Virus record (IMG/VR): IMGVR_UViG_3300026196_000007
Location: 1 to 47,817 of that record
From: a virus
Lineage: Duplodnaviria; Caudoviricetes
Length of the DNA: 47,817 bases
Strand: one strand, 5' to 3'
The translations under genes and the position numbers were made by a program. The notes below the pieces were generated by a model. That model searched no databases, was not told the origin of the DNA, and saw only the letters and a program-made list of their open reading frames with translations. This document shows, one piece after another, positions 8,062-47,817 of the stretch; positions within the stretch are counted from its first letter, which is position 1, and every line of letters starts with the position of its first letter.

Positions 8062-8082
8062 AGTTGTTTCCCCTTGTAAAAT

Positions 8083-8808
8083 TTAAACGTAAACAGGCAC
8101 CCCGGCAACCTCTTGTACCAGTCGCTTAAATAACGCCTCATCGCTGTGAGCTCCGGACAGGTGCAGCAATCGCACCTCGCGCAGCCTGGCCATTTTGCTC
8201 TTTCTGATCAATTCGACCACCCGCTCGATGCTCATATGGTGCTGATATATCCTGTTTGCAAGCGTTTTGTTGGTTGTGCCTGAATCAACGGCCTCATGCA
8301 ATAGTTTCTCAGAAAAATTGGCCTCGATCATGAGAATTGAACAGTCCGGAAAGGTGTGATCCGAAAATCCTGTATCGGTGATGAATATCAGTTGATCGTC
8401 ACCATCTTCGATCATATACCCCGTGCAGTCGTAGTCTTCATCGTGGCGGAGGGGGAATCCGTAGACCCTCCAGAAAATGGTCCTGGCAAAATCATGCTTC
8501 AAACCTTGCCCGTTCAGAATCACGTTAATCTTGTGAGAAAGGGACCGTTCTGGCACATTTAACCGGCTGGCAGTGGTTGCATTTGCAATCACCGGTATAC
8601 CGGCAAGCAACACCTCCCTGACCGCAAGACAATGGTCCCGGTGAGCGTGGGAAATACAACAAGCTTTGATGCGAGCTATGTCGAAATTGAGCGCCGCCTT
8701 GATATCTCGCCATTTTATCCCACACTCAATCAGGAGTTCGTGTTTGCCAGAGGATAGGTGGTAGCAGTTACCTTTGCTGCCACTCGCTATGGTCTTTACT
8801 TGGATCAT
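8083..8808 (-). CDS. Metallo-beta-lactamase-fold nuclease
   Basis: SGSKGN, SHAHRDH, TDTG, IEAN, HMS and LLHLS motifs. Confidence 0.9.
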   Translation of the reverse strand: MIQVKTIASGSKGNCYHLSSGKHELLIECGIKWRDIKAALNFDIARIKACCISHAHRDHCLAVREVLLAGIPVIANATTASRLNVPERSLSHKINVILNGQGLKHDFARTIFWRVYGFPLRHDEDYDCTGYMIEDGDDQLIFITDTGFSDHTFPDCSILMIEANFSEKLLHEAVDSGTTNKTLANRIYQHHMSIERVVELIRKSKMARLREVRLLHLSGAHSDEALFKRLVQEVAGVPVYV

Positions 8809-8838
8809 GGTTTACCCTTTTTGCAAATTTAAACCTAT

Positions 8839-8886
8839 GGCCAACAAAGGTTTCAACCGGACGAGCCGGTTAAACCAGCGTTAGCC
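8839..8886 (+). mobile_element. attC-like site
   Basis: GGCCAAC-AAAGG-TTTCAACC-GGACGAGCC-GGTTAAA-CCAGC-GTTAGCC. Confidence 0.8.
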
Positions 8887-9255
8887 GGCGTATTCTTCAT
8901 CTCCGTACATGTTCTTGCAGTTCCCTCTTAAAACCTTCTGCCCAAACTCTCCGAATCCGACTTCAACGAAGTCCCAAGGGTTACTCCCATCGCCATAGTT
9001 TGATTTTTCAAGCTCAACCACGAAGCGGTCCCGCAACTCGTCGCAAGCCTCGCTCTCGGCCCACCCTTTTTTAGAGCCATCTGGCAGCATTACCACTGTG
9101 GTTTTGTTGTTAATTAACGGTGGCCCAACGACAAACATTTTCCCGTCCTCGCCAGGTAGCGACTCGATGAAACGCGATATTCTGTCAACTTCTTCTTTGC
9201 TCCATGTTGTGGCCACTATAGCGTTGTTGTTTTCGACCCCCATCCTATCCTCCAA
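8881..9255 (-). CDS. Hypothetical protein
   Basis: 124 aa; stop codon lies in the attC R' box. Confidence 0.7.
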   Translation of the reverse strand: MEDRMGVENNNAIVATTWSKEEVDRISRFIESLPGEDGKMFVVGPPLINNKTTVVMLPDGSKKGWAESEACDELRDRFVVELEKSNYGDGSNPWDFVEVGFGEFGQKVLRGNCKNMYGDEEYAG

Positions 9256-9278
9256 GTATTTTGTTAAGAGTTTTCATT

Positions 9279-9680
9279 TTAATCTCCAACACTCAAGTCT
9301 ACATCAGGAACAATCACAGATGGCTTAAAAATCACCTTATAGCGGTACGTACTTACACTTGACGATTCTAGTTGTTCAACAAAATAACTCACATTGTCAG
9401 ACAGGCCGAGAAAGTGCTTCTTGAAAGTCGTGTCGCTGGTCTTGCACGTAACCTCAAGTTGGTTTCCTTGATCCTCTATTGAACACCTCCCTTCGATTGA
9501 CAATAAATACGTGTCTGTGATTCCATTAAAGAACACAACACGTCTTTCAATCTGAAACATCTCGGCGGCTTTTGAGAGGTTACGTGAGGCAACCTGCGAA
9601 TCAGTGCTACAGCCAGAAAAAAAAGCTAACAAAAAAATCAAGCTGACTGCTAGAAGTACTGTGGTTTTTGTGTTTTTCAT
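9279..9680 (-). CDS. Phage lipoprotein
   Basis: Signal peptide with lipobox FSGC. Confidence 0.75.
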   Translation of the reverse strand: MKNTKTTVLLAVSLIFLLAFFSGCSTDSQVASRNLSKAAEMFQIERRVVFFNGITDTYLLSIEGRCSIEDQGNQLEVTCKTSDTTFKKHFLGLSDNVSYFVEQLESSSVSTYRYKVIFKPSVIVPDVDLSVGD

Positions 9681-9750
9681 TTTCTATTCCTTTTTTATTG
9701 GTTTTACCGCTGTCCTTATGGTAGCAGCTTATTAAGCCATTATGATGTCC

Positions 9751-10281
9751 CTACAGTGATCCGTCTTCGTATCCTGCGCGGTAGCCGCATTTCGGGCAGA
9801 TCGTGACACCTCTAAATCGGTAATCAGTGCCGTCTTGCGTTCCTTCGCTCCATGTCTTTTCCAGAATGAAGGTGGTGCCGGTTTCATCTTCGGAAAGATC
9901 AACTTGGCATCCTTCGGGACTGCTGCAGTGATAACACTCTCCGCCACTAATGGCATATCCCGCGGTGGTTGCCCCGATCCTGTGAACCACCCGCGCAGTC
10001 CACGGATACGTCTGCCTGTACCCACCCGTCCAATCACAGAATGGTCGCCACCCGTCATAGTTCAGCCACTTGCAAAATTTAAACATTGTCCAGTAAAGCG
10101 ACCACCAGTGAAGGTTTGGCCAAAAGTATTTCCTGTGAAACTCAGATGTTTCGGGAGTCCAACAATCATTTCTCCGCGGTATCCAGCGTATACCGAACGA
10201 ACCTTCAGCAATCATTTTCCAAAATAACCAACGCCGAGGCCGCACAAAAATCCAACCGTAGCAGTAAAATAATGCCGTCAT
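9751..10281 (-). CDS. Hypothetical Trp-rich protein with two CxxC motifs
   Basis: 176 aa, RBS upstream, CYHC and CPKC. Confidence 0.65.
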   Translation of the reverse strand: MTALFYCYGWIFVRPRRWLFWKMIAEGSFGIRWIPRRNDCWTPETSEFHRKYFWPNLHWWSLYWTMFKFCKWLNYDGWRPFCDWTGGYRQTYPWTARVVHRIGATTAGYAISGGECYHCSSPEGCQVDLSEDETGTTFILEKTWSEGTQDGTDYRFRGVTICPKCGYRAGYEDGSL

Positions 10282-10306
10282 CTTTTCCCTCCGTGGCCCG
10301 AACGCA

Positions 10307-10355
10307 TCATAACCAAACGTTCGAGCCTATTCAGGCTCAACTAAAGCCGTTATAT
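10307..10355 (+). mobile_element. attC-like site
   Basis: TCATAAC-CAAAC-GTTCGAGC-CTATTCAG-GCTCAAC-TAAAGCC-GTTATAT. Confidence 0.75.
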
Positions 10356-10356
10356 G

Positions 10357-10527
10357 CTACCAGCAGCCTATTGTATCTCTGTATGCCTGCTCAGCTGCGT
10401 CATGTGCTTCTTGCTCATGCTCTGCATATATGTCTCGCACCTGCTCCCTATATTCCTTATCAGAAATTCCACCATTTTCTAATTCTTCTTCAACCTGTTG
10501 TATCGCTTTATCTACCCAGTGCAACAT
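10357..10527 (-). CDS. Hypothetical 56-aa protein (not in ORF track)
   Basis: Manual translation MLHWVDKAIQQVEEELENGG...DTIGCW*; GAGG RBS; fills the space between two attC-like sites. Confidence 0.6.
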   Translation of the reverse strand: MLHWVDKAIQQVEEELENGGISDKEYREQVRDIYAEHEQEAHDAAEQAYRDTIGCW

Positions 10528-10554
10528 AATTTAATCCTCATTGTTAAGCCTTGC

Positions 10555-10615
10555 ATATAACAAGCGCATAAAGTCAGACTCCGCTTCGCTACGCTGCTTA
10601 TGCAAGTCGTTATTC
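10555..10615 (+). mobile_element. attC-like site
   Basis: ATATAAC-AAGCG-CATAAAGT-CAGACTCCGCTTCGCTACGCT-GCTTATG-CAAGTC-GTTATTC. Confidence 0.85.
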
Positions 10616-10807
10616 TTCAACCAATTCAAGCTGTTTAAGCTCGTCAATTTTGGCGTTACGTTCTTCTTGTGTGTCGAATTTAAGTATGCCGTTTTCATCT
10701 CCCAGCAAAGACCATTTCCGGCCCGAGAGAACTTCAATACAGAACTTTGTTTCAACCTTCTTTGCGGTCAAGAAAGATTGTGTCTTTTTGCGTAATTTAA
10801 TTTGCAT
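10610..10807 (-). CDS. Hypothetical protein
   Basis: 65 aa; start in the R'' box of one attC-like site and stop in the R' box of the next. Confidence 0.6.
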   Translation of the reverse strand: MQIKLRKKTQSFLTAKKVETKFCIEVLSGRKWSLLGDENGILKFDTQEERNAKIDELKQLELVEE

Positions 10808-10889
10808 AACAAAACCTTAGAGCGGACAGGGAGAAGTGTGGCGGCATGCCCGTCCGCTTTGGGGCCTGCCGGTTAAACCGACGTTATGT
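10804..10889 (+). mobile_element. attC-like site with mismatched L boxes, possibly chimeric
   Basis: GCATAAC-AAAAC-CTTAGAGC-GGACAGG...CCTGCC-GGTTAAA-CCGAC-GTTATGT. Confidence 0.6.
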
Positions 10890-10908
10890 TTCTAAACCTT
10901 CTACCTCC

Positions 10909-10939
10909 AAAAGCCTCCCAACATTACGCTGGGAGGCTT
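10909..10939 (-). terminator. Intrinsic terminator-like hairpin
   Basis: AAGCCTCCCA / TGGGAGGCTT 10-bp stem ending in a short T run on the minus strand. Confidence 0.55.
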
Positions 10940-11065
10940 GCTTTTACATAGTGCATTTAGCACTGGCCGGCGCCGATCACATTTTATTAAATTCTAAATT
11001 AACTTTGTGCTTCTGGCATGGATCACGCATTAAAATCACCTCCTTTGCGGCGTAGTATGGGTTTA

Positions 11066-11154
11066 ACATAACCAGTCAGTCAACCGGACTGGAATAACGG
11101 TTGCGGCCTTACGGTATTACTCCGGTGGCCAGCCGGTTACTTCAAACGTTGGCT
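11066..11154 (+). mobile_element. attC-like site
   Basis: ACATAAC-CAGTC-AGTCAACC-GGACTGG...CCAGCC-GGTTACT-TCAAAC-GTTGGCT. Confidence 0.85.
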
Positions 11155-11166
11155 CCGACGCTGCGC

Positions 11167-11211
11167 ATCCAACCAAGTCTTACACCGGGCAGGCCGGTGA
11201 AGCGCCTAAAC
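11167..11211 (+). mobile_element. attC-like site, R' decayed
   Basis: ATCCAAC-CAAGT-CTTACACC-GGGCAGGCC-GGTGAAG, then CCTAAAC instead of a GTT box. Confidence 0.55.
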
Positions 11212-11439
11212 TTCTTCGACATTGACCGAGAATCCGCCGCTATCAATATGACTTTCACCGGCCTCAATACTGACATTGTCCACATCCACGCCGATAAGTT
11301 TATCTGTCCCGCCGTTTCCCGCGTAACTGGAGATATATGCGTCTTTAAAGGCGGCATCCTCGGCTTCTTCTGGGTTTTCTGCGTCAACTTCAACAGAAAC
11401 AAAAACTGGGAACGGGATAGTAACTCGATACTTTTTCAT
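11206..11439 (-). CDS. Hypothetical acidic protein
   Basis: 77 aa, GAGG RBS. Confidence 0.7.
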   Translation of the reverse strand: MKKYRVTIPFPVFVSVEVDAENPEEAEDAAFKDAYISSYAGNGGTDKLIGVDVDNVSIEAGESHIDSGGFSVNVEEV

Positions 11440-11468
11440 TTTTTACCTCATCGCTAAATTTTAATTTA

Positions 11469-11528
11469 CCCCAACAAGGGGCTTCACCAGGACTCCGCTA
11501 CGCTCCGCCGGTGATCCTCGCGTTATGC
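11469..11528 (+). mobile_element. attC-like site
   Basis: CCCCAAC-AAGGG-GCTTCACC-AGGACTCCGCTACGCTCCGCC-GGTGATC-CTCGC-GTTATGC. Confidence 0.75.
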
Positions 11529-11743
11529 TTCGGAGATATTACCATCACCGCGAGCAATTTCGACAATAGAATCAAGCTGGTCAGCAAGAGACCGCCCACC
11601 TGAGTCTACATTTTGCTCTTTTCCTTCAGGAGGGAGAACAGACCAACCCCCATAGCCGTTTTCAATCCACAAGGAAACTTGCCACCCATCCGGCAAACTC
11701 TTAGCGGCATTTTGGATTGAGTCATACAGCTTGGCGTTACTCA
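11523..11743 (-). CDS. Hypothetical protein (start uncertain)
   Basis: 3' part of ORF 11523-11822; possible GTG start overlapping the end of recT; stop lies in R'. Confidence 0.55.
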
Positions 11744-12840
11744 CCACCAATAAAAGGTGGCTCGTCAGGTAGACTTTCTCCACCATCGATGGAACCTCCT
11801 TCTGGCTCCGCATCGGGGCCATGGGCTGACTGAATCACCTCGCCGGTATCGGTATCGACCTGCTCACTTACATCAACTGTATCGAATTCCGCATCGACGA
11901 CCTGACCGCCATGGTCGTTGCCAACACCTTGTTCTTCCTTCGGCATACGCAACTCTTTAGAATTGGCGTTTTCGGCATACACCCCTTGAAACTCGCCGCT
12001 GGAAAACGCTTGTTCGCTGGCCGATAGCCGCCTGTAATCATCGTCTATCCTCTGGCTATCGACGGGGATAGACCCATATGCGGCCCGGACCAGGGTCTTT
12101 AAAACCATCTCATCCTTCCACCCTTCAATGGAAAGCTTTCCCCCGGTCTTTTTTCCGTTAACCCACTCGTCCTTTTCACCACCCCAGAATTCCGGGCTGG
12201 CGTATTTCGGCTTACGCTTGAGCACGTCGGCAATCGACATGACTTTGAGCTGATTCTTTACCGGGCTCGAAAACACTTTGTAATAGAACCCGCCGACGAT
12301 TTCTCCCCGGTCAAACTCGTTTGTAATTTCAAACTCATACGACTCGCCCCTGTTTGCAGCAGATCGCTTGATGGACTTGAACTTGTCGTTGGAATAAACA
12401 ACCTCGATTATGATATCCTCTGGGACCTCAGACTCCACCCCGTATTTGATCGCCTTCAACCTGATCCCGTTGTACCCGAGAATGAAAGTGATATCCCACT
12501 GGTTGGTCTTGTTGTTTTTGTAAGGGATAGGGAAGATGTGGTTTTTCTCGCACGGATCCAAGCCCACACGAGCGTTTGATATGACATCAAGAGCCAGCTT
12601 TTCCATATTAATATACTTCCAATCGTACGGAAGCGGTTCCTTGTTAACATTCCTCTTCTGTTCTGCGGCCTGGATCACCTCGTTAATCTTGATGCAATAA
12701 TTCTGCACCAGCCGTTGCTGGAACGCTGTCAGCGCAATCTCACCGGAACCGGTCTGAAAGCGATCAATAACGTTGTGCATGAACCTTACCTGCAGTGTTT
12801 TTTCAGGAGATACGATTACTTGGTTGTTTTCTTCGCTCAT
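11737..12840 (-). CDS. recT: RecT-family single-strand annealing protein
   Basis: GLDP...IPYKN...GYNG, VYSNDKF, GEIVGGF, EMVLKT; acidic tail; sits with the MBL nuclease and AAA ATPase. Confidence 0.85.
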   Translation of the reverse strand: MSEENNQVIVSPEKTLQVRFMHNVIDRFQTGSGEIALTAFQQRLVQNYCIKINEVIQAAEQKRNVNKEPLPYDWKYINMEKLALDVISNARVGLDPCEKNHIFPIPYKNNKTNQWDITFILGYNGIRLKAIKYGVESEVPEDIIIEVVYSNDKFKSIKRSAANRGESYEFEITNEFDRGEIVGGFYYKVFSSPVKNQLKVMSIADVLKRKPKYASPEFWGGEKDEWVNGKKTGGKLSIEGWKDEMVLKTLVRAAYGSIPVDSQRIDDDYRRLSASEQAFSSGEFQGVYAENANSKELRMPKEEQGVGNDHGGQVVDAEFDTVDVSEQVDTDTGEVIQSAHGPDAEPEGGSIDGGESLPDEPPFIGGE

Positions 12841-12888
12841 GGTTTTTTCCTTTTTTTTGTCAGTTATTGTTGCCCGTTGTCAGCGGCG

Positions 12889-13131
12889 TTATATTTTAAT
12901 CCAGTACCATCTTTTGCAACCGGCTATCAGTTCAGCCTCTGTCATATCGCCAAGGCACGGGACGACGCCCCCGGCGACAATTTCATATTTCTGTAATTCA
13001 TCTTTGAGTAATTCATTATCACCCTCGAAAATCCAATACTCGCCAGTAACATGGGTGCAATTATCAATAAGGAACTGATTGGTTTCTGACGTCTTAACAA
13101 GCGAGGTCAAAAATTCCATGTCTGCCTCCAA
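12889..13131 (-). CDS. Hypothetical protein
   Basis: 80 aa; stop within GTTATAT at 12888. Confidence 0.6.
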   Translation of the reverse strand: MEADMEFLTSLVKTSETNQFLIDNCTHVTGEYWIFEGDNELLKDELQKYEIVAGGVVPCLGDMTEAELIAGCKRWYWIKI

Positions 13132-13132
13132 A

Positions 13133-13225
13133 ATATAACAATCGGTTCAACGCAGATGGCGGGATCTGCTGTTTAATTTTTATTCGCGTTCGGTGGCCCG
13201 CCACTGGTTAACCGAAGAGTTGTGC
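13133..13225 (+). mobile_element. attC-like site
   Basis: ATATAAC-AATCG-GTTCAACG-CAGATGGCGGG...CCCGCCACT-GGTTAAC-CGAAGA-GTTGTGC. Confidence 0.8.
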
Positions 13226-13285
13226 CACCATAAAATCATCAAGCTTTGGTATTAATGTTTCCATGGCTCGGCGTTGGGGTTTCAA

Positions 13286-13597
13286 TCACACACCAATCTC
13301 CCGCCGCAAGATGATCATGGCCGCAATGTAGTTGATTGCCCCAAGTAGATCCTCAATCGCGCGGTCATCATCTGGACAATTTAGTGCCTCAAGGATCTTT
13401 TTTCTCGCCTGGAAGGCCGGGCCACCTGGCCCACACTCCCGGCCGCCCGTCATAATAGGTTGTTCGAGGAATGGCCGGCCATTTGCGTGGCGCTGTTTTC
13501 CTTTCCCCTTGGCTGCTTGGTCTAGCGCTTCGCCAAGCACAGCGGCGAGGGGCGCATAATCTTCGTCTTTTGACTCAATGGCTTCTGCGGTTATCAT
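13286..13597 (-). CDS. Phage hypothetical helical protein
   Basis: QAAKGKGKQRHA...QARKKILE...DLLGAINY; likely start MITAE. Confidence 0.7.
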   Translation of the reverse strand: MITAEAIESKDEDYAPLAAVLGEALDQAAKGKGKQRHANGRPFLEQPIMTGGRECGPGGPAFQARKKILEALNCPDDDRAIEDLLGAINYIAAMIILRREIGV

Positions 13598-13643
13598 AAA
13601 AATTACTCCCCAAGTAGTTAAAGTGGAGGTGAGAACCAGACAA

Positions 13644-15596
13644 TCAGTCAAGTTCAACTCGTAATGCCTTGTCCTGCTCGGACACATAAAGGAAAATCAT
13701 CTGCCCGCCGTACTCTGGCCAGCTGGTCACCTCACCAGCCCGGTCAACGAAGAGCGGTGGGGCAAAACCGTAGAAATCTGACATGATGTCAATGAAGTCG
13801 ATACTGCCCTGGACCTTGGAAGCATCGTTGATCGACCCGTAAGAAACGCCGTCAACAGTTGGGTAGCACACTTCCTTGTCGTCGCCCGAAATGATAGGCT
13901 CGAAAAGGCGGAACTTGAAAATATTGAAGTGTTTGTTCACCTCTTTTTCAAGCAGGCTGTGCTTTTCTCGAATGAACATCTCGGCAAGATACATATTGTT
14001 GTCCGCTGTATTTGATTTCGCCCTGAGATCGTCCAGCTCAGTTTGGTATCTTGCTATCCGCGCCCTTATCTCCTCGTTGGCTTCAATTGCGGATATCTTC
14101 TTGTTTGCGGCGGCAGCCTCTTCTCGGTACGCTGTGATTTGCTCGGTGATGGCCGTTCTCTTTTCTTCAAGACCTTTGGCGCTGGCGTCCTTTCCCGCAA
14201 GTTCTATCTCAGAATCGACCCTGGCTATATCCTCCTGAGCGTCAGCATGCTCCTTTGATCTCGTCTCTGTGTTTTTGATCGAAAATATTTCTTTGTCGAG
14301 CACTTCGATTTTATTGTCGAGTTCTTCTTTTTCCCTTGCAAGGTCATCTCGCCTTGAGCCGACAGCCACAAGCTCTTCGCTGGCCTTTTTCACGGCAGTC
14401 CTCGCCCTGAATCCCTCCTCTGCTATGGACTCTAGCTCGTTTGATTTTAAAACATTGAATTCGGACTCGGCGGGGCCTATGGGGTGGTCCTTCCCGCAAT
14501 GGGGGCATGTTACGACTTCATGTGTGTATGATTTGCCTTTTGCGACAGTCCACGCGACGGCGGCGGCGCTCAGCTTCGCCTTCTCCTCTGAAATCATCTT
14601 CTTAATGTTGATGATGTTAGATGCGGCAACCGCCATCTCTGAGCTTACGCGGTCACTCTCCCTTACAGTCACTCGCCGCCGGTCTTCTATTTCGGCCAAG
14701 ACGGTTTCCCTTGATCGCTCCTCTTCCAAACGGATGTTTTCAAGGTTGACCAGAAGTCCTGATTTCTTCTGCCTGAGTTCATTTAAATACTGGTCATTGG
14801 TCAATCCGGCGCGCTGTATTTCAAGCTTACTCGCAGCTTCCGTACAGTTCTTGGCAATATGCATTAATGCCTGCAGAGATTTGTCCCCTGGATCAACGAT
14901 TGAGGCCTGTGCTTCTGAAATCTTGATTTCATTTTCAAGGATATCCTTATCGGCTTTATCCCTAGATTCTTTGAAGTGCCTCTTTGAGGCACAAGCTCCT
15001 TCCCTCAGAATTATCCCTGAGATAGGAGAATATTTACTTCCAGGTCCGGCATTCTCAATTATCATTTCGTCTGTCACGCCCTTCGACAAATCAAGGAGTA
15101 TGCTCCGGCGCTCCTCCTGGTTCATTTTTTCGGCCATATGATGAATATTTGTCAGCATAATGAATGCCTTTTCATCGACCATTGACGAGATGAATCCGGA
15201 GAACTCTTTTGGCGTTTTTTTGAAGTCGTTGATAAAAAAGTTCGTATTGTGGCCTGTAAGCACTTTTCCCTTGCTGCCCCGTGGCTTGGTCCACTTCTCT
15301 GTGGCCACACGCTTTACGGTTGTCTTTACACCGTCGATCAAGTAGACAGCCTCGACTGATGTCTCCAGGTTGTGAATCTCTTCCCAGGTTGACGGGTCCC
15401 GTGGCTTCCAATCGAACACAGTGTTTCCAGCGTTGTCTTTCCCAAACCATAGCCAGGTGCAGCTGTTGGCCAGAGTAGTCTTCCCGACCTTGTTGTCGCC
15501 ATATATGCGGGCATTCTTGCCATCTAATTCTATGGTTAGGTCCTTCACGCCCTGGAAATTATGCAAACGGAGTGAAATAAGTTCCATTTTTTTCAT
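13644..15596 (-). CDS. Rad50/SMC-like AAA ATPase
   Basis: LHNFQG, GDNKVGKTT Walker A, long coiled coil with central CPHC hook, PLFVD Walker B. Confidence 0.88.
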   Translation of the reverse strand: MKKMELISLRLHNFQGVKDLTIELDGKNARIYGDNKVGKTTLANSCTWLWFGKDNAGNTVFDWKPRDPSTWEEIHNLETSVEAVYLIDGVKTTVKRVATEKWTKPRGSKGKVLTGHNTNFFINDFKKTPKEFSGFISSMVDEKAFIMLTNIHHMAEKMNQEERRSILLDLSKGVTDEMIIENAGPGSKYSPISGIILREGACASKRHFKESRDKADKDILENEIKISEAQASIVDPGDKSLQALMHIAKNCTEAASKLEIQRAGLTNDQYLNELRQKKSGLLVNLENIRLEEERSRETVLAEIEDRRRVTVRESDRVSSEMAVAASNIINIKKMISEEKAKLSAAAVAWTVAKGKSYTHEVVTCPHCGKDHPIGPAESEFNVLKSNELESIAEEGFRARTAVKKASEELVAVGSRRDDLAREKEELDNKIEVLDKEIFSIKNTETRSKEHADAQEDIARVDSEIELAGKDASAKGLEEKRTAITEQITAYREEAAAANKKISAIEANEEIRARIARYQTELDDLRAKSNTADNNMYLAEMFIREKHSLLEKEVNKHFNIFKFRLFEPIISGDDKEVCYPTVDGVSYGSINDASKVQGSIDFIDIMSDFYGFAPPLFVDRAGEVTSWPEYGGQMIFLYVSEQDKALRVELD

Positions 15597-15679
15597 GGTT
15601 TTTCCTTTACAGCGGTTTATTCTTGAAGATCAAAGCCCTGTCCCTGCAATAATTTCGGCATTTATCTCCCTCTCAATAA

Positions 15680-15744
15680 ATATAACAAAGCGTTAGAGAA
15701 TCGACGCGCACAACAGCCGCGCGCGTCTCAACTCATCGTTATTT
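15680..15744 (+). mobile_element. attC-like site
   Basis: ATATAAC-AAAGC-GTTAGAGA...TCTCAAC-TCATC-GTTATTT. Confidence 0.8.
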
Positions 15745-15960
15745 GTCGGCCAATTTGTTTAGAATTTCACCAAGACGCACATATTGTGCCTCGATGTTTT
15801 GGTTAGCAGTTTTCCAATAATCAACCAGCTCAGGGGGTATGTCTGGCCTTTTTAATGCCGCCGTTCTCTCCTTCCCCACGCTCCAATACATGGTCGAAAG
15901 GCCGATTAAGCAAACAAGAAAACATGCAGAGACGCCTACACAAAATCCAATCCAGAACAT
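15739..15960 (-). CDS. Small membrane-anchored protein
   Basis: 73 aa, N-terminal TM, AAGGAG RBS, stop in R'. Confidence 0.7.
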   Translation of the reverse strand: MFWIGFCVGVSACFLVCLIGLSTMYWSVGKERTAALKRPDIPPELVDYWKTANQNIEAQYVRLGEILNKLADK

Positions 15961-15983
15961 AACATTCTCCTTTTTGTTTATTC

Positions 15984-16068
15984 AAACAACAATTCGCTAC
16001 AGTGGATGCTGAGAACTCAGCGGTTTTGATTCAGCGTCAGTGGCGCACCACTGAGCTTTCCGTTAGAT
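15984..16068 (+). mobile_element. attC-like site
   Basis: AAACAAC-AATTC-GCTACAGT-GGATGC...GCACC-ACTGAGC-TTTCC-GTTAGAT. Confidence 0.8.
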
Positions 16069-16554
16069 TGCCTTTAAACAATCTTTGTTCATTACAAACA
16101 CTGTTTCACAGTCCCATCCATATAGAGATTTAGGATTAGTGAACCTTGTGTCATTCTCTCCATTTTCTGTTAAGTGGATAGCGTCGTATTTTCCCGCCAA
16201 TCTTTCAAAATCAATCCAAGGGAACATATCCTCTCCCTCCCAAGGAAGGCGAAGCATGTCTTCAACAGAATCAATTCTCAAAAGACTCCCTACAAACTCA
16301 AGATTGAAGCATTTGCATGTATCTCCATAGCTCTCTGCCTCACACCAGTCTTTCCAGCCAAAACAAGGACCCACAGGGCTTGTCCACAACCCGCCTTTTG
16401 GCTTATTCCTGCGAGGCGAGTTGGTTACTGGTAAAACCAGTTCTTTTTTAAACTCCAAACTACCGTAGTGAACCAACTCAAGTCTAACCAAACGCTCAAT
16501 AGGACTTGCGGAGTTTATCGGTTTTTCAGTGCTTATGGCTTCTGTCGTGTCCAT
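16063..16554 (-). CDS. Phage hypothetical protein, possibly ADP-ribosyltransferase-like fold
   Basis: HYG...NKPKGGLWTSP...YDAIHLT...LYGWDCET; first ~24 aa encoded by the attC-like site. Confidence 0.6.
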   Translation of the reverse strand: MDTTEAISTEKPINSASPIERLVRLELVHYGSLEFKKELVLPVTNSPRRNKPKGGLWTSPVGPCFGWKDWCEAESYGDTCKCFNLEFVGSLLRIDSVEDMLRLPWEGEDMFPWIDFERLAGKYDAIHLTENGENDTRFTNPKSLYGWDCETVFVMNKDCLKAI

Positions 16555-16611
16555 TAGTTTATCCTCGTTATTGGGCTTTGCATCCGCAATCCCATTAGCT
16601 CAACGTCATCT
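16482..16611 (+). mobile_element. Long attC-like site (R' GTC variant) containing a gene start
   Basis: GTCTAAC-CAAAC-GCTCAATA-GGACTTGCGGA...TCCGCAATCC-CATTAGC-TCAAC-GTCATCT. Confidence 0.8.
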
Positions 16612-16863
16612 GGCTTTGTTTTTCTCATGGTTTCTCAAGCTCTGTTCGGCATACCTCACAATGTCACCAAGGGTATTTGTCTCCGTCGGCTGTGATTCAG
16701 ACCACAGAACCCACCCTTCGTCGGTCCGCAATACTATGCGGCTGTATTCGTAGGAAATAACAGCGTCAGATAACCCGGCGCTCAACCCGGATGGAACATT
16801 GTGCGGTGCTGGCGCTGGCGGTGGTTTCTTAAATGTCGGTGGTGGATTGCTTCCTTTCTTCAT
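16606..16863 (-). CDS. Hypothetical protein
   Basis: Likely start MKKGSNPPP after GGAGGAG; stop in R'. Confidence 0.6.
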   Translation of the reverse strand: MKKGSNPPPTFKKPPPAPAPHNVPSGLSAGLSDAVISYEYSRIVLRTDEGWVLWSESQPTETNTLGDIVRYAEQSLRNHEKNKAR

Positions 16864-16901
16864 GTCTCCTCCCTTGGTTCCGGCGAGCTTAGTCGTTGGC
16901 C
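16768..16901 (+). mobile_element. Long attC-like site, imperfect L pairing
   Basis: AGATAAC-CCGGC-GCTCAACC-CGGATGGAAC...GTTCC-GGCGAGC-TTAGTC-GTTGGCC. Confidence 0.6.
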
Positions 16902-16925
16902 TGCATGAAATCCATGCGTCCTTCT

Positions 16926-17105
16926 TCATTGATCCTCATTACGACAAGGCATCTCGACGGGCTCTTTCCCCAAGCCCTGGGGTGTTTTGCTTGCGACCAT
17001 GTTTTCCAAGACCGAGGCCATAGATTTCTCCTCGACTGCAGCAATTAAGCGGAGCTTGGATAGTGTTTTTTTCCAAATCTTGATAGTCACAAATTCATTC
17101 TTCAT
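16926..17105 (-). CDS. 59-aa ribbon-helix-helix-like regulator (not in ORF track)
   Basis: Manual translation MKNEFVTIKIWKKTLSKLRLIAAVEEKSMASVLENMV... Confidence 0.65.
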   Translation of the reverse strand: MKNEFVTIKIWKKTLSKLRLIAAVEEKSMASVLENMVASKTPQGLGKEPVEMPCRNEDQ

Positions 17106-17111
17106 GTAGTT

Positions 17112-17140
17112 AATTTACACCTTGCAAGTAAAGAAGTCAA
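17112..17140 (-). promoter_or_regulatory. Sigma70-type promoter
   Basis: TTGACT-17bp-TAAATT, 6 nt before the ATG at 17105. Confidence 0.65.
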
Positions 17141-17158
17141 CAGTAAATATAAACCTAT

Positions 17159-17206
17159 GGCCAACAAAGGTTTCAACCGGACGAGACGGTTAAACCAGCG
17201 TTACAC
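17159..17206 (+). mobile_element. attC-like site, near-identical to 8839-8886
   Basis: 17150-17203 matches 8830-8883 at 53 of 54 positions. Confidence 0.8.
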
Positions 17207-17971
17207 TGACAATATCGCACGACCAATAATCTCCGGTATCTGCGGGATCACGGCGTTTCCGAGCTTGTTAATTCTGTCCACCTTATTGGGTAGCCCATCA
17301 ACCACTCTAGCCATTCCGGGTTCAATCCAGAGCTGCACATTTTCTTTCTCTGCCCCACTCCCACTATCTTGTCCAGTTTGTCCTTGGCCGCAGATCCACC
17401 GCCCAACCCAACCGGCCCCCCTCCCGGCAAACCGCGACTGCACGGAGTAGGCCACAATATAGCATCGGTCGCGCACTTGAGGGGAGCCAACGACATGACC
17501 TGGTATACAATGCCATTCTGCATCGTACCCGAGCGCGGCAAGGGAGTTAAGCACTTCCGCAAGTCCGTCAGCGCACAGCCTAGCGACATTTTCCGCAAGC
17601 ACGAATTTCGGGTTAGCTTCTTCGACAAGCCTACGCATCTCTCGCCAGAGGGAGCTTTGTTTCCCTTTAAGCCCTTCCATTTTCCCTGCCCTACTAATGT
17701 CTTGACAGGGGAACCCTCCGCAAATAACGTCAACTGCTTCTGGTAAGTCTGCTGCATGTAATTGCCTCACGTCTTCAAATATCGGCACATCAGGCCAGTG
17801 CTTTGCTAATACCTTGCGCGGAAAAGGTTCGATTTCACAAAAGGCTATCGTCCTAAATCCACCTGTCCGTTCCAATCCAAGAGAAAAACCTCCAATGCCG
17901 CTAAATAGATCAAGCACTGTATAACAAGGCGCTACACAAGGATTTGCTAACATGTCGGCATTTTCGGCCAT
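17201..17971 (-). CDS. dcm: C5-cytosine DNA methyltransferase
   Basis: LDLFSGIGG, GGFPCQD, ENV, RDRCYIV, LGNAV. Confidence 0.93.
   Translation of the reverse strand: MAENADMLANPCVAPCYTVLDLFSGIGGFSLGLERTGGFRTIAFCEIEPFPRKVLAKHWPDVPIFEDVRQLHAADLPEAVDVICGGFPCQDISRAGKMEGLKGKQSSLWREMRRLVEEANPKFVLAENVARLCADGLAEVLNSLAALGYDAEWHCIPGHVVGSPQVRDRCYIVAYSVQSRFAGRGAGWVGRWICGQGQTGQDSGSGAEKENVQLWIEPGMARVVDGLPNKVDRINKLGNAVIPQIPEIIGRAILSV
17248..17757 (-). CDS. Nested alternative-frame ORF inside dcm
   Basis: 169 aa open frame ending LNPEWLEWLMGYPIRWT. Confidence 0.45.
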   Translation of the reverse strand: MQQTYQKQLTLFAEGSPVKTLVGQGKWKGLKGNKAPSGERCVGLSKKLTRNSCLRKMSLGCALTDLRKCLTPLPRSGTMQNGIVYQVMSLAPLKCATDAILWPTPCSRGLPGGGPVGLGGGSAAKDKLDKIVGVGQRKKMCSSGLNPEWLEWLMGYPIRWTELTSSETP

Positions 17972-18048
17972 CTTCTCACTTCCCTATTTCATCTTTAATT
18001 CATACTCACAGGTTCTAAGCCGCAAACCTGTGAGCTAAGGCGTTATTT
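17919..18048 (+). mobile_element. Long attC-like site containing the dcm start
   Basis: GTATAAC-AAGGC-GCTACACA-AGGATTTGC...GCAAACC-TGTGAGC-TAAGGC-GTTATTT. Confidence 0.85.
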
Positions 18049-18540
18049 GTCAACAGAAAACAGTGCAGCGGTCCCTACCCTTCGGCTTAACACACAACTT
18101 GAGCCGGACAGAGATGCTTTGCGAAATCCATTGGTGCCCCCGTATTCAGGATCAACAGCGGCACCAGTGTTACTGTCCTTGCTCAGCTTTTCCCACTCGG
18201 ATTGCGGTTTTTTCGGCGGGGTTCGTCCGCCGAGGTCTTTGAGCAACGCCTCGTCCACCACCGCCGCCACTTGCCGCCGCAGGTGCCTCGACAGGGTGGA
18301 ACGGTTAACGCCATATTTGCTCGCCATCGCCGTGACCCCGAGCCGTTGTCCAGTCTGTTTGATTGTGTATATGATTCCGGTCCCTGATGGCCGTAGAGCC
18401 TGGTCTGTGAGCCGTTGAGGCCGATCCAACGCTTTCCAACGGTAGTACAATGTGTGGTAAGGGAGGCCGTATTCCTTGGCAAAGTTTTTAAGCAAGTCAG
18501 TCTTCCCTTTGTATGATACTCGTATTCTCTTGGCTACCAT
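18043..18540 (-). CDS. Hypothetical protein with HTH-like segments
   Basis: AKEYGLPYHTLYYR and ASKYGVNRSTLSRH. Confidence 0.6.
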   Translation of the reverse strand: MVAKRIRVSYKGKTDLLKNFAKEYGLPYHTLYYRWKALDRPQRLTDQALRPSGTGIIYTIKQTGQRLGVTAMASKYGVNRSTLSRHLRRQVAAVVDEALLKDLGGRTPPKKPQSEWEKLSKDSNTGAAVDPEYGGTNGFRKASLSGSSCVLSRRVGTAALFSVDK

Positions 18541-18547
18541 AATCTTT

Positions 18548-18790
18548 TCACCTTGGGTTTTTACAAAGAAAGAAATCGGCCCAAGTCGGGCTAGGTATTT
18601 TGCTTAAAGCCTGTTTTTCATCTTCAGAAACCATAACAAGCCCTGGGCGGCCCCTTTTTCCAAGTTCGCACGAGTTAATTTTGCCCCCTCCAGCACGGGC
18701 AAGTTTTATTATAGTCGAGTGGCTGCGTTTCAAGCGCTTTGCTGCGGTATAAGTGGCAACAGTCCGCCCGTCTAGTTTTATTTTTTTCAA
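18548..18790 (-). CDS. Hypothetical basic protein, HTH-like
   Basis: AAKRLKRSHSTIIKL. Confidence 0.5.
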   Translation of the reverse strand: MKKIKLDGRTVATYTAAKRLKRSHSTIIKLARAGGGKINSCELGKRGRPGLVMVSEDEKQALSKIPSPTWADFFLCKNPR

Positions 18791-18965
18791 TTTTCTTTAG
18801 TCATCCCACTCCTCGCGAAAAAGGATCTCAATACACTCCAGAAAACCTACGAAACAGATTACTGCGAACGCTGCTTCCATATCATCTCTCCTTTAATTTC
18901 CGCCACCACTTTAAGCCGGTGGCTGATTATTTCATCCAGTCTCAACGGCGGGGTGCGCGTTATCT

Positions 18966-19646
18966 CTAAGGTAGCCACTGCCACCATCTGCCGCCATGCC
19001 CCGGATAGTCAAGGCATGTCCAATATGTATCGTTATGCCTCCCTGTTTGGTGTTTATGCCAATGGCCGAAAAACCACTGAGCCGGTTTATATTTCTCTAA
19101 TATCCGGTCAAGGGCTATTCTGTTGCTGTCACGATGCTTTCCTTCACTGCCAACAACATCAAAAGATCCCGGGCAAGTGTGGCTTATAATAATGTCAACC
19201 CTTTCCTCTATAGCCATAGCCATCTCAAACTCAGGCAAGCTGATATTTTCTTCGGAATACCAATCATGCCCCGGGGTTCGCATGTTCTTGTCAATTGAAT
19301 CAGCCCCACCGATAAATAAGACATTCCTGCCATCAGGCAGAGTTAAAACGCTGCCCCTTGATGCGTGGTAGACACCTTCGTACATTTCGTGTATAAGGCC
19401 ATCCTGGGTAAGCAATTGGTGCTCCTCATGATTGCCATCACACCAATACACATTTGCTCCGTTAGGCTTAACACCACGTAACATCCATATTTTCTGTCTT
19501 CCATATAACACAGGCTTGGGGACCTCCATTTTCGGCCACCAGCCAAAATCACCGCATTGCAAAACAATTTCCGGTTTCTTCTTTGTTAACAGAGTATTGA
19601 GTCTCGCCCAATCTCCATGGATATCTCCAACTATCAAGGTTTTCAT
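18966..19646 (-). CDS. Calcineurin-like metallophosphoesterase
   Basis: GDIHG, GDFG, GNHE, SHTCP, FGHWH. Confidence 0.92.
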   Translation of the reverse strand: MKTLIVGDIHGDWARLNTLLTKKKPEIVLQCGDFGWWPKMEVPKPVLYGRQKIWMLRGVKPNGANVYWCDGNHEEHQLLTQDGLIHEMYEGVYHASRGSVLTLPDGRNVLFIGGADSIDKNMRTPGHDWYSEENISLPEFEMAMAIEERVDIIISHTCPGSFDVVGSEGKHRDSNRIALDRILEKYKPAQWFFGHWHKHQTGRHNDTYWTCLDYPGHGGRWWQWLP

Positions 19647-20202: not shown

Positions 20203-20400
20203 TCAGTCAGCGTCCAGCGCCGCCTGAATGCACTGCTTCATTCCGTCCCAGTACTTTATGTAGGCGTCTACGTCAACATCGCCACGCGGAAATATCCCAA
20301 GCTCGCAAGCCTTCTTTACTGCGGCATGAAGCATTTGATCGCTGGCAACGCGGCTTTGTTCGGTGTTCGTGGTGTCGTCAGTCATTGTCTTTGTCTCCAA
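20203..20400 (-). CDS. Hypothetical protein
   Basis: 65 aa, same strand as its neighbours. Confidence 0.55.
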   Translation of the reverse strand: METKTMTDDTTNTEQSRVASDQMLHAAVKKACELGIFPRGDVDVDAYIKYWDGMKQCIQAALDAD

Positions 20401-20432
20401 GTTTGGCGGCTGCCTGCCGCACAGCTTTAGCG

Positions 20433-20636
20433 TTATAGATCCTTCACACTCATCGTATTATCCACCCCGCTTTGTTTCATCAATTCCCGCAGGAACGCCG
20501 CCTGCACCCTTGTCGGCCTCCGCTGCCCGGATTCGATCCTTGATATCTCTGTGTTAAAAATCCCCATTTTCTCGGCAAGCTGTGCTTGGGTTAGACCCAG
20601 GCCCAGTCGGGCTTGTTTGAATTCTTTGTTGGTCAT
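20433..20636 (-). CDS. XRE/Cro-like HTH regulator
   Basis: FKQARLGLGLTQAQLAEKMG...ISRIESG.R.P. Confidence 0.9.
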   Translation of the reverse strand: MTNKEFKQARLGLGLTQAQLAEKMGIFNTEISRIESGQRRPTRVQAAFLRELMKQSGVDNTMSVKDL

Positions 20637-24367: not shown

Positions 24368-25522
24368 TTATGTATTCAAGGTTAATGTTACGCCTTGAGC
24401 TACTAGGCTGTTATAGGCTGTATCCGACGCTGATGTTCTTGCTGGTGCGTTACCTGTTATAATCATAACTTTCTCGTTTTCCCAGGTAGCAAGAGCTGAA
24501 TCAATAATGATATTATCTACATCGCTAGAAGATAATGACATTGAATTTCCATTAATGTAAAAATATCTTTGTCCGTTTTCTGGTGTTCTCCTTGTATAGC
24601 CATTGAAAGCGTTTAAGTTACCATTAAGGATTATAAGTGTAGCACTAGCAGGGAAAACTAAGGTACCAGTGAAAGTGTTTGAGTGACCATTAAGGTCTAT
24701 ATATGTAACACCAGCAGGAAAAACTAAGGTCCCATTGAAAGCGTTTGAGTTACCATAAAGGATTATAGTTGTAACACCATCAGGGAAAACTAATGGTCCA
24801 TTGAAAGCGTTTGAGTGACCAGCAATTTTTATATATGTAACACCAGCAGGAAAAACTAAGGTCCCATTGAAAGTGTTTAAGTGACCATAAAGGTTTATAT
24901 ATGTAACACCCGACCCAAAACTTAACGCACCCCCAAGATGTGAACTAGTATTGCTCTGATATATACTGGTTAGAACGCTACCATCAACAGCCTTTACAGT
25001 ACACCTATGATTAGCTGTTGCATATGTATGTGTCCACGCCTGGTCAGATGTACCAGCGTAACTGTTGCTTGTGTCATCGCCCCAATCAATGTAGATCTTG
25101 TCTGTATCTGATTTAGTCTTCCACGTTCCGGCCAATGTTTCCGCAGCATTTGCATCAAATCCAAATACCTCAACCAGAGGTGTGTATGTAGATCCAAGGA
25201 ATGTGCAAGCCTTTGTTAAATCTCCAGATGTGGCCGCTGTGCTGTAAAAAACAACGGTCTCAGCATTGCCAACGCAAGCTGTTTTGTTCAGCCGTGCGCT
25301 GGCAAGAGCGAGAGTCCTTGCTGCAGCAGGTGTCCTTGCTGTAGATGGATCGGAAAACAAAATATCCCTTATTATCGGGTCGTAGCTGGTGTAGTCACCG
25401 GCTGACAGCGAACCTGACACAACTCCTGTGCTGTCCACGACCAGCATTATGCCATTGGTAGGCAACGTAGTGTTTCTTCCAGCCCTAAACCCAAGACCGA
25501 TTGATCCTCCGAAAAGGCTCAT
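24368..25522 (-). CDS. Putative receptor-binding/surface protein with a PKD-like segment and 22-aa solenoid repeats
   Basis: YIDWGD...HTYA; five copies of LVFPAGVTYIxLxGxSNxFNGT. Confidence 0.65.
   Translation of the reverse strand: MSLFGGSIGLGFRAGRNTTLPTNGIMLVVDSTGVVSGSLSAGDYTSYDPIIRDILFSDPSTARTPAAARTLALASARLNKTACVGNAETVVFYSTAATSGDLTKACTFLGSTYTPLVEVFGFDANAAETLAGTWKTKSDTDKIYIDWGDDTSNSYAGTSDQAWTHTYATANHRCTVKAVDGSVLTSIYQSNTSSHLGGALSFGSGVTYINLYGHLNTFNGTLVFPAGVTYIKIAGHSNAFNGPLVFPDGVTTIILYGNSNAFNGTLVFPAGVTYIDLNGHSNTFTGTLVFPASATLIILNGNLNAFNGYTRRTPENGQRYFYINGNSMSLSSSDVDNIIIDSALATWENEKVMIITGNAPARTSASDTAYNSLVAQGVTLTLNT
24600..24910. repeat. 66-bp coding tandem repeat, about 5 copies
   Basis: ccattgaaag...tgtaacacc unit recurs every 66 nt. 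Confidence 0.9.
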
Positions 25523-47805: not shown

Positions 47806-47817
47806 GCGCGAAACACC
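47806..47817. repeat. 12-nt terminal direct repeat (right copy), probable cos end
   Basis: Identical to 1-12. Confidence 0.75.

Follow-up and report, generated by a model that had tools for sequence, protein, structure and literature searches.

Probable rows of inverted attC cassettes in a tailed-phage genome, and long attC sites that likely carry the starts of their own genes

The window analyzed in this study is the whole of a single viral contig of 47,817 bp (IMG/VR record IMGVR_UViG_3300026196_000007; our genome G000). Between positions 8839 and 18048, in a region read by eye from 7800 to 19500, it contains 13 complete sites resembling attC, the recombination site of integron cassettes, as well as several remnants. 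In textbook cassettes, the attC site lies behind the gene, and expression often depends on the integron. Judging from the sequence, we consider it likely that this phage carries rows of inverted cassettes, that its long sites provide the ribosome-binding site, the start codon and the first 17-32 amino acids of the gene, and that the sites are, or once were, targets of an integron integrase (IntI) of the host. A first-pass annotation of the window had proposed that three long sites, named here A, C and D (Table 1), each contain an ATG in the variable loop of the minus strand, from which translation runs out through the L'' and R'' boxes. The sites lie exactly where it placed them, and the three ATGs and their leaders were recovered as it described.

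The sites have the geometry of attC, namely paired L'' and L' boxes, an extra base near position 4 of L'' and spacers of 5-7 nt. R'' ends in AAC and R' begins with GTT in 12 of the 13 sites, the exception being D, which has GTC in R'. A strict scanner (threshold 9) passes eight of the 13 and has a ninth regional match inside the SbcC gene (15081-15220); the L boxes of site L pair poorly, and this site is probably a composite of two sites. When only geometry is scanned between 8800 and 18100 (threshold 10), eight matches have their top strand on plus (seven known sites and one in the SbcC gene) and none on minus, compared with a mean of 0.35 and a maximum of 2 matches in 40 shuffles of the same region; the remaining 38.5 kb give 3 and 4 matches. 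An initial scanner with fixed spacers recovered just four real sites and was discarded, and Rfam returned nothing at gathering score. A hairpin forced through the R boxes is the minimum free energy (MFE) structure, or within 1.5 kcal/mol of it, in eight of the 13 sites (B, E, F, G, L, M, N and P), and the hairpin z-scores of all 13 range from +1.4 to -3.7.

The orientation of the sites was judged against 63 bacterial regions beside intI, drawn from the class of a Desulfobulbaceae genome (intI occurs in 118 of the 201 genomes sampled from this class) and from two Methylobacter genomes. In these regions, the scanner places 95 sites as expected and 8 on the opposite strand. A matrix built from the arms of 66 normal bacterial sites chose the correct strand in 65 of 66 leave-one-out tests, and it places the top strand on plus for all 13 sites of the window, which bears out the naming of L'' and R'' in the first-pass annotation. 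The opposite assignment is ruled out by the extra-helical bases; strand skew, also tried as an orientation test, gave a mixed outcome and is confounded by a genome-wide skew. At all 13 sites the cassette genes lie on the bottom strand, and the canonical layout, a top-strand gene ending near R'', was not found. Every cassette gene is therefore antiparallel to its own site.

This layout is not restricted to the window. Among 49 viral sites from 18 loci fetched by attC patterns, 32 are inverted, 1 is normal, 13 are ambiguous and 3 have no open reading frame (ORF), whereas 83 bacterial sites divide into 64 normal, 7 inverted, 7 ambiguous and 5 without an ORF. The classes rest on ORF length, and the bacterial tally has a degree of circularity because its normal sites were used to train the matrix. 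One narrow attC pattern had no match in the bacterial genomes. A wider pattern had 121 bacterial matches, only 15 of them with an R' arm (3 normal, 3 inverted, 6 ambiguous and 3 without an ORF), and this set was not used; its 14 scored viral matches comprise 10 inverted, 0 normal, 2 ambiguous and 2 without an ORF.

In the three long sites, the loop ATGs at 17971 (A), 16863 (C) and 16554 (D) on the minus strand are followed by no stop codon through L'' and R'' and open ORFs of 256, 85 and 163 amino acids. Exactly one ATG frame per site is open through R'', and it is the frame of the gene. The predicted energies of pairing between the Shine-Dalgarno (SD) sequence and the anti-SD are -6.6 (A), -11.3 (C) and -5.9 (D) kcal/mol. 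The SD of site C is GGGAGGAG (16873-16866) and that of site D is GAGGA (16566-16562), in agreement with the clear ribosome-binding sites that had been claimed for these two; the SD of site A, AGGGA (17985-17981), is weak and, by eye, less contiguous. Start codons directly after R'' are poor (GTG 17917, +0.9; TTG 16476, -2.2; TTG 16731, +0.1), and no ATG with an SD follows R'' in any of the three long-site genes. Behind eight of the shorter sites, the following gene or short ORF has its own ATG after R'' with an SD of -3.9 to -10.0. The predicted loop start is thus a property of 3 of the 13 sites, all of them long; one further site, L, has the ATG of its gene inside R'', as the first-pass annotation had stated, and none of the nine short sites provides a gene with a start. 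Site K is followed by a 30-codon ORF from an R'' ATG with a weak SD (-2.4) and by a 17-codon ORF with a strong SD.

When each of the three loops was shuffled 1000 times, an in-frame ATG with an SD arose in 14%, 8% and 9% of the shuffles, for a joint probability of about 0.001. In 17 ordinary bacterial long sites, an open ATG occurs in 9 of 51 frames, and an ATG with an SD of -5 or below in just one. Of seven other viral inverted long sites, four of them from one contig, L518, six have an ATG with an SD in the frame of the gene, compared with 0 of 14 other frames.

L518 is a fragment of a related phage (portal 41%, capsid 42%) with nine matrix-scored sites, all antiparallel to their genes; none of the cassette genes of the window was found in it. 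One of its sites is 74% identical to site D over 129 nt and keeps the ATG at offset -73 and a similar leader, MNDKEAIKPETPTSSASPFERFVS, with an unrelated gene behind it. Its A-type sites encode leaders ending in APCY ahead of another class of methyltransferase and an unknown gene. A C-type leader with LSAGL heads another gene in the viral record L522, and at the DNA level the leader MNEAQRNE belongs to 72-nt inverted sites on other genes (L478 and L493). The earlier proposal that the recombination site doubles as a portable translation-initiation module therefore finds support insofar as related leaders stand on unrelated genes in another phage, but not as a general property of the sites. The L518 array (10715-14624) lies upstream of the head genes, not among replication genes.

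These observations bear on the strongest competitor, according to which the sites are real but mostly dead, and start-less genes survived case by case wherever the bottom strand happened to offer an SD and an ATG, with no inherited module. The bottom strands of attC sites are purine-rich (PMC5027507), and an open in-frame ATG arises in 24-35% of shuffled loops. Site A has lost its first ATG and would use another, the leaders differ widely, and mutated and truncated sites are present. Chance rescue is, however, hard to reconcile with D-type sites that keep both the ATG offset and a similar leader on unrelated genes, with an A family that aligns on a single ATG column, with the rarity of ATGs with an SD in ordinary bacterial long sites and with the freshness of the border matches described below. 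We therefore consider rescue without an inherited module unlikely and retain the reading that the start belongs to the site.

Comparison of homologues, which the first-pass annotation had suggested as a check, gave the pattern that it anticipated for dcm, the C5 DNA methyltransferase gene behind site A, and for gene D: similarity begins at R'', and the N-termini vary. In dcm, the conserved VLDLFSG had been said to begin right after R''; it begins 1 nt past it, at the GTG at 17917. Among 119 scored dcm relatives (self included), 97 have at most 8 residues before xxDLF. Six relatives, including four of the five closest (63-80% identity), have differing leaders that all end in PCY, which is a reading of the L''-side spacer and R''. 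For gene D, 109 relatives were scored, of which 44 have short N-termini (the type in which ME precedes LIHYG) and 65 have longer ones; in 24 relatives the N-terminus ends in an arm-like string such as VDRLVKLR (a loose pattern). In the closest of these, a GTT-encoded valine stands, by eye, two codons ahead of the native methionine position, so R'' appears to join at the native start. We infer an attC origin for most of these protein-level leaders. Three gene-D loci have sites: an inverted one with a loop ATG in L089 and normal ones in L340 and L368, where an ATG belonging to gene D itself lies 23 nt beyond the site. In the AlphaFold model of the window's gene D, pLDDT (predicted local distance difference test) values are 46 and 58 for residues 1-20 and then 77-98, and the residues encoded by R'' lengthen the first strand. 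About ten gene-D relatives (L094, L095, L103, L163, L339, L361, L362, L367, L369 and L376) carry, by eye, another class of inverted repeat, unscored by the matrix, with leaders of the PALLIASVS and QADVMCS types.

The true starts could instead lie outside the sites, at GTG 17917 for dcm, TTG 16476 for gene D and, for gene C, the translationally coupled ATG 16929. All three codons are in frame with their genes, ATG 16929 shares bases with the stop of gene B (ATGA), and the AUG of site A is predicted to be paired. However, GTG 17917 and TTG 16476 have the poor SD energies given above and fall within the conserved first strand, and the six dcm relatives keep an open leader ending in PCY. We regard starts outside the sites as quite improbable, and the loop ATGs remain the preferred starts.

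The sites also show the border agreement expected of cassettes. Across 11 pairs of neighboring sites, two of them involving remnants and with pairs across core genes excluded, R' and the R'' of the next site share 29 of 33 variable core bases, whereas 100,000 permutations average 15.9 and never reach 29. Inside single sites, R' and R'' agree at just 17 of 39 bases. In L518 the border agreement is 20 of 24 bases, a value reached in 131 of 20,000 permutations. Genes ending in TAAC, the reverse of GTTA, make up 9 of 15 genes in or at the arrays versus 3 of 43 others. As to which gene owns each site, site B with 14 nt of its gene-side flank is a 97% copy of site P: the two agree from the GTTA of R' across the whole site and for 14 nt beyond R'', but not into the upstream gene. 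The bottom strand of attC is cut within the AAC of R' (PMC5027507), which leaves the body of the site attached to the DNA next to R'', here the following gene on the mRNA. It is most likely that each site and the gene following it share one cassette and that start and gene move together. A low-depth contig of the source run, which shares 11148-11211 and diverges at the R' of site K, is weakly consistent with this.

The first-pass annotation had spoken of the site as serving the next gene, which is correct along the mRNA, but a crossover in R' places the site in the cassette of that same gene. Taken literally, with the attC belonging to the preceding gene, recombining at R'' and lending its start to any gene behind it, the wording describes a third alternative. 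The border matches are symmetric, so the two ends cannot be told apart by them; the arrays open with a site-less gene and close with a site that precedes a core gene; and top-strand recombination is possible at a low rate (PMC5027507). Nevertheless, the extra-helical bases and the arm matrices place the cut at R' in all 13 sites, the B/P copy runs past R'' on the side of the downstream gene, start-less genes stand in the right frame behind long sites while self-starting genes stand behind short ones, and the contig diverging at K adds a weak argument. We therefore consider this alternative very improbable. That the repeats are homology linkers or the targets of an enzyme other than IntI is hardly credible. 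In its favor, no integrase was found in the window genome, no IntI exceeds the cut-off in five related viral records, and B and P are nearly identical. Against it, most sites share little sequence and yet keep attC geometry, their arms resemble those of sites beside intI, and the agreement of R' with R'' follows the logic of cassettes.

Several points weigh against inverted cassettes with loop-borne starts, in addition to the circularity of the bacterial tally. The forced hairpin lies 3.6-4.6 kcal/mol above the MFE of the DNA in A, C and D, whose z-scores are -1.6, +1.4 and -1.0. With GTC in the R' of D, a composite-looking L and several truncated sites, the array may be in part fossil, and present recombination activity is uncertain: the long sites fold weakly, and D has lost its GTT but keeps the stop codon. 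An earlier in-frame ATG of site A, at 17992, occupies the family position, in one alignment column with the ATGs of three relatives, and is cut off by TAG at codon 3; the AUG at 17971 is predicted to be mostly paired in the mRNA (0.23 unpaired, versus 0.65-0.66 for C and D); the start of site A is accordingly predicted to be weak. Amber read-through at site A was judged unlikely, the long core ORFs being open under translation table 11. The frame of gene C is also open from ATG 16929, upstream of its site (107 amino acids), and no homologue of gene C was found by word search or in Atlas. At the DNA level, a matrix-scored site lies near the start in only 3 of 119 gene-D loci, against a background of 4 in 357, and the PCY junction occurs in 0 of 74 viral dcm loci, which are the more distant ones. 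Finally, one source run (X1) yielded no contig or joint that skips a cassette.

We propose that an integron integrase supplied by the host would serve these mirror-image cassettes. Cutting the bottom strand in R', where it overlaps the stop (TAA-C) of the gene in front, IntI would leave the site body ahead of its own gene. A cassette could then enter at a TAA-C stop or at the R' of another attC, the resident gene would be spared, and the incoming gene would be translated from its own loop. The purine-rich bottom strand is the mRNA strand, which would favor SD-like sequence, and the leader, predicted to be disordered, could vary loosely provided that the frame and the start were kept. Seen from the gene, either layout would yield the same circle, with GTTRRRY before the start and TAAC at the stop, and only the cut end would differ: the normal layout would leave the site behind the gene, and the inverted one would leave it in front with SD and ATG attached. 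A truncated site on the minus strand at 20385-20438, which retains an R' arm, GGAG and a loop-type ATG, is a possible end state in which the start has outlived the recombination site; a diverged copy of 20346-20436 is present in the source run.

It is conceivable, although we would lean slightly against it, that phages keep a mirror-image cassette pool of their own, in which attC start modules are joined to phage genes at the native start and stacked by host IntI at the TAA-C stops of packed operons. If such a pool existed, the junctions would record the creation of cassettes, a question that has long been open, and phages would be a source of new cassettes. Because the relatives of gene D occur free of attC, behind inverted sites and behind normal sites, with R'' at the native start, cassette creation becomes testable in actual gene families. 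More generally, a site in front of the gene, on the other strand and with a start, would make a cassette self-translating and its entry at the stop codon of a phage operon undamaging. Lytic or integrase-less phages could then rely on integrases of the host to shuffle their accessory genes, methyltransferases among them. The same arrangement would explain odd, variable N-termini of environmental phage proteins, such as those ending in ERLVR, APCY and LSAGL.

Table 1. Coordinates of the attC sites, site remnants and cassette genes in the window.
Feature	Position	Length	Strand	Remarks
attC site A	17919-18048	130 nt	top +	R'' 17919-17925, R' 18042-18048; scanner score 13; matrix 26.9 (+) vs -2.1 (-)
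attC site B	17159-17206	48 nt	top +	
attC site C	16768-16901	134 nt	top +	matrix 37.4 (+) vs 5.3 (-)
attC site D	16482-16611	130 nt	top +	matrix 22.4 (+) vs -3.3 (-)
attC site E	15984-16068	85 nt	+	gene E 15739-15960, own SD and ATG past R''
attC site F	15680-15744	65 nt	+	array end, ahead of SbcC-like gene
attC site G	13133-13225	93 nt	+	gene G 12889-13119, own SD and ATG
attC site J	11469-11528	60 nt	+	gene J 11206-11439, own SD and ATG
attC site K	11066-11154	89 nt	+	only short ORFs (30, 17 codons) after
attC site L	10804-10889	86 nt	+	ATG in R'' (10807); SD TAAGG in L''/spacer arm (10819-10815)
attC site M	10555-10615	61 nt	+	gene M 10357-10527, own SD and ATG
attC site N	10307-10355	49 nt	+	gene N 9751-10281, own SD and ATG
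attC site P	8839-8886	48 nt	+	copy of B, directly before metallo-hydrolase gene
Remnant site H	12860-12896		+	R' arm alone, before recT; by eye
Remnant site O	near 9739-9745			similar to H; by eye
Truncated site	20385-20438		-	R' arm, GGAG, loop-type ATG (20385) fused to 61-aa ORF; by eye, unscored
dcm, C5 DNA methyltransferase	17201-17971	256 aa	-	Pfam PF00145 from residue 17; leader MAENADMLANPCVAPCY from loop ATG of A; stop TAA in R' of B
Cassette B	16926-17140		-	promoter match and 59-aa ORF; ORF stop overlaps ATG 16929
Putative gene C	16606-16863	85 aa	-	from loop ATG; leader proline-rich, ends LSAGLS; stop TGA in mutated R' of D
Gene D	16063-16554	163 aa	-	phrog_8582; leader MDTTEAISTEKPINSASPIERLVR; stop TAA in R' of E
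Gene L	10610-10807	65 aa	-	starts in R'' of L, SD -3.8; stop TAA in R' of M

The window is a lambda-like tailed phage. PHROGs matches include terminase, portal, capsid-protease, tape measure, SSB, primase, helicase, metallo-hydrolase, RecT and an SbcC-like gene, and almost all of the matched genes lie on the minus strand. The record is classed as linear, with a CheckV estimate of 65%; the contig ends overlap by 12 nt (1-12 and 47806-47817), just upstream of terS, which likely reflects a break at cos and hence a complete genome. Terminase matches in named phages are only about 25% identical and give no host, and RecT was not found in any of the 201 genomes sampled from the bacterial class. The search for a tyrosine recombinase was negative, both for PF00589 across the genome and among 60 ORFs. 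The window thus holds no complete integron, having no intI (attI was not specifically searched), and it qualifies as a cluster of attC sites lacking an integron integrase (CALIN), with 13 attC sites in 9.2 kb and no neighboring intI. The arrays sit between core replication genes. In three closely checked relatives by RecT (L001, L003 and L005), the genes for SbcC, RecT and the hydrolase either adjoin or stand no more than about 0.6 kb apart, whereas in the window they are separated by stretches of about 0.8 and 2.9 kb that hold small genes and sites; no clear attC array was found in L001-L005.

Within the arrays, cassette B has a sigma70-like promoter match (TTGACT-17-TAAATT, 17140-17112), in a region where promoter matches are not enriched over shuffled sequence (14 vs 15.3). 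Both here and in L298 (3870-4050), a short site is followed by a cassette with a TTGACT-17 promoter match, which could drive the cassettes downstream. Cassette K (10890-11065, minus strand) has no sizeable ORF, an SD of -12.9 before its 17-codon ORF and a hairpin near 10905-10940, and is possibly a small-RNA or peptide cassette. Gene D may encode a small ADP-ribosyltransferase-like protein: its Atlas feature matches of 0.83-0.86 are to AcrIF11/ART-PolyVal (ADP-ribosyltransferase) clusters, and Foldseek returned PARP-like rows with a non-significant best E of 0.1. This is a lead only, and the PDB holds no sequence match. Gene L has no Pfam or PHROG match. In the lower array, a Phage_VG64 family lipoprotein-like gene (9279-9680, minus strand) carries the PHROG label 'recombination directionality factor' and has no intact flanking sites. 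The +1 frame of dcm holds a nested ORF of 169 aa (17248-17757, minus strand). Truncated sites consisting of an R' arm only lie at the three remnant positions of Table 1 and at about 20190 and 11745. Outside the arrays, 66-nt tandem repeats (24600-24929) and a short repeat run (28041-28100) fall in ORFs of 384 and 671 amino acids, respectively, neither of which matches PHROG or Pfam.

Searches of open-access papers yielded nothing on inverted phage cassettes or loop-borne starts. Phage CALINs themselves have been published, as attC arrays without intI that often accompany DNA methyltransferases (Qi et al., 2023; PMC9892861). According to that study, which tabulates aadA7 geometry in its Table S3, IntI1 recombined five of six phage attC sites tested, with the bottom strand preferred, and two sites of phage PH101 recombined with IntI1, the bottom strand above the top. 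Its text calls PH101 typical and, there, makes no mention of an antiparallel strand or of starts. On our re-check, the IntI1-active PH101 sites have their top strand on plus and their genes on minus, and are thus antiparallel, with long spacers; IntI1-active sites with a like strand relation therefore exist in a cultured phage. Site attC1 of P12002L (L525, near 30005) is likewise antiparallel to its neighboring genes, and TJE1 has the normal layout. PH101 (L527, 30900-33000; NC_029094, 75.9-78.0 kb) has four sites, two of them nearly identical, with repeated flanks. The published phage CALINs hold 2-4 sites per phage (PMC9892861), compared with 13 and remnants between core replication genes in the window, where every gene is antiparallel and three have their predicted start in the loop.

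Sedentary chromosomal integrons, beside intI, share with the window the site geometry, similar arms, the match of R' and R'' at borders and one small gene per cassette. They differ in the adjacent intI, in the 64 of 83 sites with a top-strand gene and the site behind it, and in the rarity of a bottom-strand ATG with a strong SD (1 of 51 frames). Closer in function are ORF-11 of attI1 and the short ORFs of attC sites, which aid translation (Hanau-Bercot 2002 and Jacquier 2009, as reviewed in PMC8876359): as in the window, a recombination site gives translation signals to a cassette gene that lacks them. However, those ORFs act from the top strand, by coupling or re-initiation, on any following cassette, whereas in the window the bottom strand would supply an N-terminus fused to, and retained by, its own gene. 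IntI also inserts cassettes at attG (GWT) sites in bacterial chromosomes (bioRxiv 10.1101/2022.09.11.507474), which provides a route without attI; that phage stop codons may serve as targets is the proposal of the present analysis. Finally, a synthetic attC placed in a coding sequence can both recombine and encode a peptide (Nivina et al., 2020; PMC7439510). Those sites are engineered internal linkers, whereas the long sites of the window would be a natural, N-terminal case that includes a predicted SD and start codon.

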